A stretch of 64,000 nt of DNA from Ginglymostoma cirratum (Eukaryota). The DNA lies in assembly GCA_024137785.1 (NCBI GenBank), contig JAHRHZ010000145.1, forward strand, positions 3,080,517 through 3,144,516. The letters are read 5' to 3'. The notes under the pieces were generated by a model. That model was given only the letters and a program-made list of their open reading frames with translations. It ran no database searches and had not been told where the DNA came from. The translations under genes and the position numbers were made by a program. Shown one piece after another: positions 2,835-8,405 of the stretch. How positions within the stretch are numbered: the first letter of the stretch is position 1; each line of letters starts with the position of its first letter.

Positions 2835-3000
2835 TGACTTGACTTGTTGGTAAAGCTATGCGAAGTCGCTGTAGTCGTGAAGGACCATAGGGTTGCTCGC
2901 CCATTAGAGAGAAATGACTGATGCAGTTTCACCGGAGGGTCACAGTGCCTCAGGTGAGGGGAGAGGTTGAGAAGAAGAGTTCTTTATGGTAATTTCAGCT
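2835..3000 (-). mobile_element. SINE family A fragment inserted in the copia integrase
   Basis: Similar to 228-350. Interrupts the integrase after the CDIC zinc-finger remnant (~2753). Confidence 0.55.
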
Positions 3001-3075
3001 GTGTGTATGGTATAAGGAAAAAAGCATTTTCATCTCGCACTTCTTCCATTGGCAAATAGATTTAGCCACTCTACA

Positions 3076-3212
3076 TTTTCTTTTTAATTTAATTTATTTT
3101 TCTAATCAACCTGTTCAGAGAGGTTATGACACACCTCTGGAGCATGTGGGACTTAAACCCGGGTATCTCGGTCCATGGGTAAGGACACAACCACTGCATC
3201 ATAAAAGCACTG
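3076..3212 (-). mobile_element. ~110-bp tRNA-derived SINE (family B) with A-rich tail, fused downstream of U6
   Basis: Minus strand has TGATGCAGTGG (A box) and GGTTTAAGTCCC (B box), ends ...GAACAGGTTGATTAGA and has an A-rich tail at 3076-3101. Other copies at 6151, 7760, 7884, 28855 and 31255. Confidence 0.8.
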
Positions 3213-3317
3213 AAAAATATGGAAACCTTCATGAATTTGTGTGTCATCCTTGCCCAGGGGCCATGCTAATTGTCTCCGTATCATTCCAATTTTAACAAAT
3301 GTGCTGCCAAAGTGAGC
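3213..3317 (-). pseudogene. RNU6: U6 snRNA retropseudogene, near full length
   Basis: Reverse complement aligns without gaps to vertebrate U6 nt 3-107 (..GGCAGCACAT..AAAATTGGAA..ATTAGCATGGCCCCTG..AAGGATGACAC..TTCCATATTTTT). About 14 mismatches by eye, many at CpG. The ACAGAGA box is mutated to ACGGAGA. Confidence 0.95.
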
Positions 3318-5010
3318 CAGTCTACAATATATAGTAAGAGGAAACAGGTGACTGTTGACAATTCATGGCGAAATGGACAGAAACTAGACTGGAGGCAATG
3401 AGCTAGATTCCTCACTGACAATGGGGTGAGATTTGTCAATTATGATTTTATTGATGTATGTGAAAATATGAACATTATAGAAATGACTATGACTGCAGAA
3501 AGTCCCTTTAATAATGGAGTTTGTGAAATAAATCATGCAGTAATAGATGAGATGCTTCAGTAAAGCTTAATAGACCAACTAGTCCATGGGCAGTCATTCC
3601 ATGAAAATAACTCACTGCAAATGGTTGGGAGCTACATTCCATATCAATTGGCTTTTTGCAGAATTCCAAAAATGTCTTCAGTAAAAAGTGACTATTCTCC
3701 AGTTTGGGAAAGGATTACAATCAGCTCCACTTCTTCTTAGAATATGAATACCCTGCATGAAGGGAGAAGGGAATTAAGACTAAGGTTTCAGAGAAAATGT
3801 GGGAGTTAAATGGCATCATTTGCCTTCAAAAATGAATTTTAATCTAGGGTCATAGTATATTATAAAGAAATTGTAACTTTACAATATGGCAATCAGCCTG
3901 TTAGAGTGCATAACTTGAGGTTGACTGACACTGCTTGTACCTTTACCGAATTAAAACAATTCATAGATGTGGTACTGTGCACTTCCAATATGCGTATCTT
4001 GAACAATTATAAGCAGTAGATTATGGGAGGTGAAGGGCCGACCGAGTAGGGACAAAGTGATGTTGACGCATAGAATAGGCTATTTATCCACACGAACAAC
4101 TACCAAGGGTCTGCATATATGTGACAGAAAGACGCAGTGAATGGAGGGATGCCACCATAATCAGGACAGCCTGGAATGTCACCAACCTATAGAAACATTG
4201 CCTAAATGTGCAAGATGAGGGACAGGAGGTAAAATCCTTGGATCAGCAAAATGAGGCAAAGACGTGGAAGGCCAGAAAACAAGTTCTGAAAGTGAATTTG
4301 GAAGTGAACACAGTTGTATGAAAACATCATGGACTTGTGATGGGTGTTTTGACCATGGGAGGGGGTGGATTTGCCGTAATAGTTTTGAATACGATAGGAA
4401 GTCGATTAGAGGTCATAGTCTGGTAAGTTCAATGGAACAGAATTGGAATACCATCAGAAGTAGAAGTGTTTATGATTAAAAAGTTTTAGTGGCCACTAAT
4501 AAATTAAAAGATAAGTTGATAAAGGATGCCAAACAAAAAGGATTGAAAAAACTGGTGTATACACTAAGGTGCTAGATAACACAGCCTTGTATTGTCACCA
4601 GAAAAAGTGCTTCCTGATGGTACATATAAGGTTAAACCCAGGTTAGTGGCTTGGGTTTTGAAGACAGATCTACTGACCAAAATTCTGGGTTGATTCCCCT
4701 ATAGCAAGAAGAGTAAGCCTGAAGATTTTCTTAGCTCTTTCAGCAACATATTTCTGGGAAGGTGATTTGGTTGATATAAAAACTACAATTTTCAAGAGGT
4801 GAAATTTCAACGGAAAGTTTTATCGAAGTCACCCACAGAAATCAGGATGATACAGAACTGAAATTATGGAAAATAAACAACTATGTTTATGGATTGAATC
4901 AAGGGTTGCTACATCTCAGTTTGGTCTGTTGCTGAAAGCAGATTGTATTCTGTTAAAAGTAGACACAGTCATGTTTTATTGGCATCATAAGACTAAACTA
5001 ACGGGTATAT

Positions 5011-7400: not shown

Positions 7401-7759
7401 ATTTTTGAAAAGAAACATAAAGCTTAATTGTCATTTAAATGACAAATGCTGCTCATGTAATTTCCAGACTGCTAACTGGCTTTCTTTTTGCTTCTTTTAT
7501 ATGACTGTGTTGCATCTGTAACAGAGTGTGTGAGATTCTCAGAAGTTAAATGCACGACACTTGAGAGTGTGTGTGTACGCAAATGTGTATTGAATCAGGT
7601 GTGTATTCATTATACATTAAAACTTAAATTTTGATGAAAAATTGTTATTTTAGTAAGGGACATAAAACCAGTCAATTTTTACTTCTAATACCTGGCTTGT
7701 CTTCAGCAGTCCTGGGGAATTTACAAACATAATCAAAATGCTTCCTTCATATAGTTTAT

Positions 7760-7997
7760 AACCAACCTTTTCAGAGATAGTGTGACAAACCCTTGTAGGA
7801 TGGGCCTTGAACCTTGTCTCTCAGCTTGGAAGTAGGGACACTACCACGGCATCACAAGAGCCCCTCTGAAATGTTCTTCATTTTCTAATCAACCAGTTCA
7901 GAGATGGTATTAAACACCTCTGGAGCAGGTGGAACTTGAGCCAGGGCTCCCTTGGGTCAGAGGGAGGAACACTACCACTGCACCACAACAGCCCCTC
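7760..7997 (-). mobile_element. Tandem pair of family-B SINEs
   Basis: Two head-to-tail units (~7760-7866 and ~7884-7997), each ending CACAA(G/C)AGCCCCTC on the plus strand. Confidence 0.75.
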
Positions 7998-8405
7998 CAA
8001 AGTGTTGAGTGTTTAGCTGATGTCAAGAGGTGCTCATTTAAACCTCACTGGTAGTAAATAAACATCTAGGGCTGATTTTGAGGATGGAAACCAAGTTAAG
8101 TGTGACTCCATTTAGCAGCCAACAACATCAGCCATGTTCCAAATCCCAAAAAATTTGTCAGTATGACCATGATGATTCAACTGTTTATTTTTATGCAATA
8201 GCATAGCACACCAATTCAGTGAATTAATTGCTAATATTTGTTTAAATATTTGCATTCAGCAAACAACAGCAAATTGTCTAATCAAATAGCAACTCGTGAT
8301 AAGATCGATCCTTTGTTCTCTCTTCAGCATAGTCAGCTTTGAACAGGCAGTTGATTACTATTTTGCCATTACATATTGTTAGTAAAGAAAGACAGCAAAT
8401 CTCAC

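Follow-up and report, generated by a model that had tools for sequence, protein, structure and literature searches.

The window analysed here is a stretch of 64,000 nucleotides from Ginglymostoma cirratum, and between its positions 3064 and 3326 a U6 snRNA copy immediately precedes, in the same orientation, the 5′ end of a retroelement. The locus raises the question of whether the two parts entered the DNA together, and whether the joined unit is a single accident, a member of a U6-headed SINE family, or one product of a process that has recurred in this genome.

Structure of the U6-SINE Chimera

The first-pass annotation described a near-full-length U6 copy on the minus strand that ends in TTTTT, and this was reproduced using Rfam and by comparison with the genome's own U6 gene. 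The Rfam model RF00026 matches positions 3319-3213 of the minus strand (87.6 bits, E 2e-22). The U6 retrocopy occupies positions 3213..3317 (minus strand) and extends from nucleotide 3 to the 3′ end of U6; nucleotides 1-2 are absent. Across nucleotides 3-106 it shares 86.5% identity with the U6 gene of this genome, with a non-CpG divergence of 7%. It terminates in five T residues, and the U6 genes of this genome encode four.

The direct joint of U6 to the 5′ end of a SINE with an A-rich tail was also recovered. The first base of the SINE is position 3212, which leaves zero gap to the 3′ end of U6. The SINE (3102..3212, minus strand) is a full-length short element of the tRNA type, here designated family A, with an A box at 3201-3191 and a B box at 3159-3149. 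The A-rich tail (3076..3101, minus strand) is the same as that carried by solo copies, and the total length of the SINE is ~135 bp. The sequence diverges by 18% from the family-A majority. Neither Rfam nor ARAGORN called a tRNA within the SINE, so that the basis for the label "tRNA-derived" is the A and B boxes visible in its sequence. Assignment of the window copy to a "CAGTGC-head" SINE subfamily was rejected, with 1 match genome-wide, and an Rfam match to SNORD12 (E 0.14) is regarded as chance.

The unit is bracketed by a 12-bp direct repeat, AGCCACTCTACA (3064-3075) and AGCCAGTCTACA (3315-3326), of which 11/12 positions are identical. The 3′ TSD copy (3064..3075, minus strand) differs from the 5′ TSD copy (3315..3326, minus strand) by one substitution. 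The direct-repeat score is 9, compared with a maximum of 6 for swapped-flank controls. The single bracketing repeat that had been described is thus retained with one correction: the last three nucleotides of the 5′ copy (GCT on the minus strand, positions 3315-3317) double as nucleotides 3-5 of U6 and constitute a 3-nt microhomology at the 5′ joint. The insertion site differs from TTTT/A, and the partner is a full-length SINE, not a 5′-truncated L1.

The Host Element and the Empty Site

The chimera interrupts an element on the plus strand. Its left portion (3005..3063) was recognized by alignment to uninterrupted relatives, and it resumes at 3327..4932 with a decayed integrase-like region followed by weak RVT_2 pieces at 4677-4932. 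The integrase-like motifs were discerned by eye, and Pfam returned no match for the integrase pieces of the host. The two downstream pieces gave weak RVT_2 matches at consecutive profile positions (Pfam, E 0.12-0.15), and a relative of the host on contig C97 has an RVT_2 match above the cut-off 1.3 kb downstream. The earlier statement that a copia integrase is interrupted and then resumes is sustained for the interruption, by the flanks that align to relatives and the RVT_2 signals, and the integrase itself is an assignment by eye. As judged from these alignments, the host is a copia-like LTR element older than the chimera insertion.

The empty site was examined in nine uninterrupted copia-like relatives. 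The 12-mer is present once, with both flanks aligned, in four of these (L079, L081, L084, and L085); the alignment at the site is too poor to judge in the remaining five. Because the empty-site relatives hold the 12-mer once, a single insertion of the unit into the older LTR element is indicated. The TSD that encloses both parts and the empty site support the earlier proposal that U6 and the SINE arrived in one insertion. The feature in the window is a dead U6-SINE pseudogene, which is real and was inserted as a unit. Part of a further SINE (family C tail; window 2883-2992, minus strand) is also nested within this copia-like element, at a distance of ~70 bp from the chimera.

Census of U6 Copies in the Genome

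A U6-core pattern with ≤3 mismatches was used to search the 4.36-Gb genome and gave 70 matches, compared with 0 in the control. Eight matches belong to a single gene cluster, and the other 62 are dispersed; more diverged U6 copies lie outside the count of 62. The sequence continues into a SINE or tRNA-like head in 41/62 of the dispersed copies, of which 35 passed the script score and six (L071, L073, L075, L092, L101, and L104) were recognized by eye. The partners are family A (18), family B (17), a B-tailed element (1), family C (1), D-like elements (3), and a tRNA-like head (1). Ten further chimeras beyond the census were obtained from searches with the unit. At least 27 U6-A and 17 U6-B loci are present in total. 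Family B is presumably HE1/V-SINE-like. HE1 is listed with HER1 in sharks and rays (PMC3747384). The presence of an HE1-like SINE, together with the size of the genome, points to a cartilaginous fish as the source.

Among the other 21 of the 62 dispersed copies are 3′-truncated copies with their own TSD, copies next to Penelope-like ends, and a small number of probable U6-LINE joins. At L045, L050, L103, and L106, internal CR1-like sequence follows U6 and no repeat match lies upstream; these are probable U6-LINE chimeras. Near-full U6 copies immediately adjoin the ends of elements that we take to be Penelope-like at L038, L041, L053, and L044; the flanks of L041 look inverted, which suggests Penelope-mediated capture of U6. 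The U6-A chimera at L104 (G000:C263) was later interrupted near U6 nucleotide 98 by a TG...CA element of ~220 bp, which is accompanied by a duplication of 5 bp and is likely a solo LTR. A tandem arrangement of SINE A, U6, and SINE A is found at L007 (G000:C13:36340420-36340780) as a possible double jump.

The U6 gene cluster (G000:C99:6396536-6424176) consists of six intact genes, one decayed copy, and one fragment. The six intact genes end in only four T, and such a weak terminator would suit an origin by read-through, in which a U6 gene is co-transcribed into a downstream SINE and the long RNA is retrotransposed. This origin is scarcely credible: a SINE head is found behind 0/7 of the cluster copies, and read-through fails to account for the several partner families, the extra T residues, and the joining of U2 and tRNA described below.

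The census also bears on whether the two parts could have arrived in two separate insertions at one spot, first the SINE and then U6 at its 5′ edge, or in the opposite order. A U6 copy inserted at a SINE edge with no duplication of its own would be indistinguishable from a joint arrival at any single locus, and at L121 a SINE was inserted just before another SINE. Two such events are nevertheless very improbable as an explanation, because the background density of heads predicts ~0.15 U6-head joins and 41 were observed in the sense orientation, with 0 head-to-head. No inner TSD was found between the U6 and SINE parts of the chimeras, and the U6 3′ end is repeated behind the SINE in 0/23 A and 0/16 B chimeras. 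Long TSDs surround both parts in 5/25 U6-A chimeras, a proportion similar to that for solo A copies (8/30); a sixth high TSD score, at L007, is a tail-to-tail artefact and was left out of the 5/25. The other 20/25 A chimeras have no clear TSD. A TSD was found in 0/17 B chimeras, as is expected of a CR1-type tail. The divergences of the U6 and SINE parts, which are short sequences, are uncorrelated (rho -0.27, p 0.21) and lend no support to co-insertion.

One Family or Recurrent Formation

The unit had been regarded as either a one-off event or a member of a U6-headed family. Neither alternative held: because the structure is found at dozens of loci whose SINE partners and junctions differ, recurrent and independent formation appears to be the best reading of the U6-SINE chimeras. 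A junction common to these loci was rejected, since the exact junction pattern of the window matches 1 locus genome-wide, and differing junctions are the outcome that had been put forward as the mark of recurrent chimera formation. The T-runs of the chimeras are 0-7 long, the spacers vary, and several U6 parts are 3′-truncated. The 5′ flanks are unshared.

Descent from the master copies of a U6-headed composite SINE family, or of a few small families, as for the crocodilian SINEU elements, would agree with the number of U6-A and U6-B loci and with a T-run+A junction that is repeated in several A copies. The non-CpG changes shared among the U6 parts of the A chimeras are in slight excess (111, compared with 89 ± 9 and a maximum of 123 after shuffling), and the chimera label is mildly clustered on the SINE tree (10/500 shuffles as low). 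Diagnostic changes were, however, not found. The frequent U6 changes fall at CpG sites, and the commonest non-CpG change is present in 5/23 A copies and 3/14 B copies, with none fixed. Comparison of 23 chimeric with 30 solo A copies gave 0/80 SINE columns that separate them at p<0.05. The tree of these sequences is star-like and interleaved, with 13 label changes, and the chimeras form one group in 0/200 bootstrap trees; the sequences are short and well-supported branches too few, so that one origin is compatible with the tree, and the selection of the solo set by a perfect 34-nt head biases the comparison.

Several unrelated partners and heterogeneous junctions also argue against a family, as does the vast excess of solo SINEs over chimeras. 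U6 is carried by 0/30 solo family-A copies with an intact head, which by the reasoning of Kojima indicates independent template switches (PMC4494074). The joined unit, moreover, is without a promoter. The promoter of a U6 gene lies upstream and is not copied, the T-run acts as a terminator for Pol III, and the internal boxes of the SINE start transcription at the SINE; the joined unit should therefore not re-copy itself. A U6-headed family is thus improbable and, as a general explanation, largely refuted. A few of the U6-A copies may already form a small family.

Template Jumping and RNA Ligation as Proposed Mechanisms

The first-pass annotation proposed that a pre-formed U6-SINE fusion RNA had been retrotransposed. 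A jump during reverse transcription fits better than this proposal. From the sequence comparisons, the window feature is read as a dead retrocopy that entered the site as one unit, likely one of dozens that arose independently when a LINE reverse transcriptase jumped from the SINE to U6, with a probability of roughly 0.6. The LINE protein would nick the target and prime on the SINE tail, as suggested by the TSD and the tail. The reverse transcriptase would read through to the first base of the SINE, where the joint is located, and would then add a few non-templated bases and jump onto the 3′ end or U-tail of U6. Finally, U6 would be copied and the 5′ joint closed via the 3-nt microhomology seen at the window locus.

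Most joints are located at the natural start of the SINE. The T-runs that exceed the four T of the genes point to an RNA template or to non-templated addition, whichever model is adopted. The non-templated bases added by the R2 reverse transcriptase are mainly A, and this enzyme needs such additions in order to jump (PMC8857657); the addition of A would favour U-ended acceptors. In the same paper, overhangs of 3 nt are unproductive, human chimeras are credited to ligation before reverse transcription, and a physiological role for jumping is doubted (PMC8857657).

Ligation would proceed by the repeated action of RtcB, which would join U6 bearing a 2′,3′-cyclic phosphate to SINE RNA trimmed to a 5′-OH, with subsequent retrotransposition of the fusion. 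Several observations are in accord with this route. U6 is the commonest passenger (41/62, compared with 8/29 for U2), most U6 parts end in a mature U-run, and T-runs of 5-7 fit mature U6, the substrate of RtcB. The SINE leaders vary by a few bases, which is compatible with a cut 1-4 nt into the SINE. Ligation to cleaved RNA predicts, however, that joints are scattered along the partner, and those observed cluster at the SINE start; U2 and tRNA fragments, moreover, show the same behaviour. The primary 5′ end of a Pol III transcript is a triphosphate. The primary SINE transcript is thus an unlikely partner for RtcB, as it should lack a 5′-OH. Ligation by RtcB is the demonstrated route for human U6/L1, and the enzyme requires a 5′-OH, a triphosphate partner having given 0/26 full-length joins (PMC6789731). 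Taken together, recurrent ligation is considered rather unlikely for the shark chimeras.

Under the template jump, two machineries appear to be involved, one for family A with long TSDs and one for family B without a TSD and with a tail of the LINE-ORF2-end type. The tail of family B is shared with the ends of LINE ORF2. In a search for a LINE with the family-A tail, 4/99 tails had no head according to the score, and none of the four resembled the end of a LINE.

Other RNAs Joined to SINEs

For U2, 30 of 43 matches were taken, of which 29 are non-gene copies. U2 is joined to a SINE in the same manner in 8/29 of these (five by score and three by eye). Two of the eight, L154 and L158, contain the same chimera of U2(1-142), a T-run, and SINE B with a common 5′ flank, and thus represent one event that was duplicated. 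Among the solo A copies, a tRNA-Lys is joined in 1/30 (L127), and family A itself is joined in this manner as dimers. The region L127/L141:1500-1570 contains a 3′-truncated tRNA-Lys(TTT) joined to the family-A head, as confirmed via the genomic tRNA-Lys genes. The segment ahead of L133 is taken to be tRNA-Val-like. At both L127 and L133, Rfam missed the upstream tRNA-like segment.

It is tentatively possible that U6, U2, and tRNAs enter the DNA of this genome mainly by end-to-end jumps off intact SINE 5′ ends, with at least two LINE machineries and independently of RtcB.

Other arrangements were encountered. Head-to-tail dimers and trimers of family A are frequent (window 7755-7999, minus strand; L012, L016, L027, L030, L117, and L138). 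At L087/L162 (G000:C130:1631528-1631793, minus strand), nucleotides 19-81 of U6 lie within U2 at about nucleotides 38-49 with a duplication of ~11 bp. This is the position at which poly(A)-tailed elements interrupt U2, so that U6 may have been inserted in trans by a LINE that targets U2. U2 begins at nucleotides 38-41 immediately after an A-rich tail at L152, L153, L155, L156, L157, L160, L164, and L166, and likewise at nucleotides 38-41 behind different upstream sequence at L163 and L170. Elements specific to U2, such as Keno, are marked by a U2 start at nucleotides 38-41 behind an A-tail (PMC4494074).

Relation to Known Chimeras

The annotation cited U6/L1 chimeras of mammals as precedent. 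These are known, and the precedent is wider, since U6-SINE chimeras have been published for platypus (U6/Mon-1) and anole (U6/AnolisSINE2, six copies), together with U6/Alu (Doucet et al. 2015, PMC4476161). The chimeras of Doucet et al. resemble those described here in having U6 in front and the SINE behind on the same strand, with one TSD; they involve non-L1 machineries and are ascribed to template switching. The platypus U6 parts are mostly 5′-truncated and joined to short L2 pieces, and U6/Alu is very rare (PMC4476161). In this genome, by contrast, SINE partners account for the majority, and the joint falls at their natural start; the available text of Doucet et al. is silent on the completeness of the anole SINE. 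Cartilaginous fish are absent from the table of that survey of 48 genomes (PMC4476161). Adjacency on the same strand, one TSD that is single at the empty site, and independent origins are shared with the "Repeat" group of Doucet et al.

The U6/L1 chimeras formed via RtcB ligation (Moldovan et al. 2019, PMC6789731) similarly have a full U6 with a short T-run at its end, located 5′ of the retroelement within one TSD. U6/L1 chimeras have an L1 fragment with a 5′-OH as their partner, whereas the partner in this genome is an intact SINE of the Pol III type, for which a triphosphate is expected at the primary 5′ end. In the crocodilian SINEU families and the 5′ extensions of SINEU-2, snRNA was repeatedly added at SINE 5′ ends, and template jumping was proposed (Kojima 2015, PMC4494074). 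The SINEU elements are true U1- or U2-headed families with master copies; here the passenger is U6, and the signature of a master copy was not found. Compared with snRNA-headed families, the junctions are not uniform and the 3′ part exists mainly solo. Chimeras of L1 with tRNA and other RNAs are listed by Law and Burns (PMC11838501), and PMC2912911, PMC7245038, and PMC11260458 serve as background only.

Literature searches found no report of a U6-SINE chimera in sharks (subscription journals and Repbase were outside their coverage). The window chimera falls within the known kind of U6-retroelement chimera, and no new family is demonstrated. The novel aspects are the lineage, the predominance of SINEs among the partners, and a joint that falls at the natural start of the SINE.

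Significance

Whether U6 chimeras arise by jumping of the reverse transcriptase or by ligation of RNA is still debated, and ligation has been demonstrated only for human L1. The many joints that fall at the intact 5′ end of a Pol III transcript provide a case that discriminates between jumping and ligation, with a substrate that can be tested. The chimeras repeatedly display the step proposed for the acquisition of new heads by SINEs, apparently without a new family having arisen. If end-to-end jumps are indeed the main route of entry, the shark chimeras would constitute evidence of jumping in vivo at the scale of a genome. They would also represent a standing pool of head-swapped SINEs, a possible source of snRNA-headed families.
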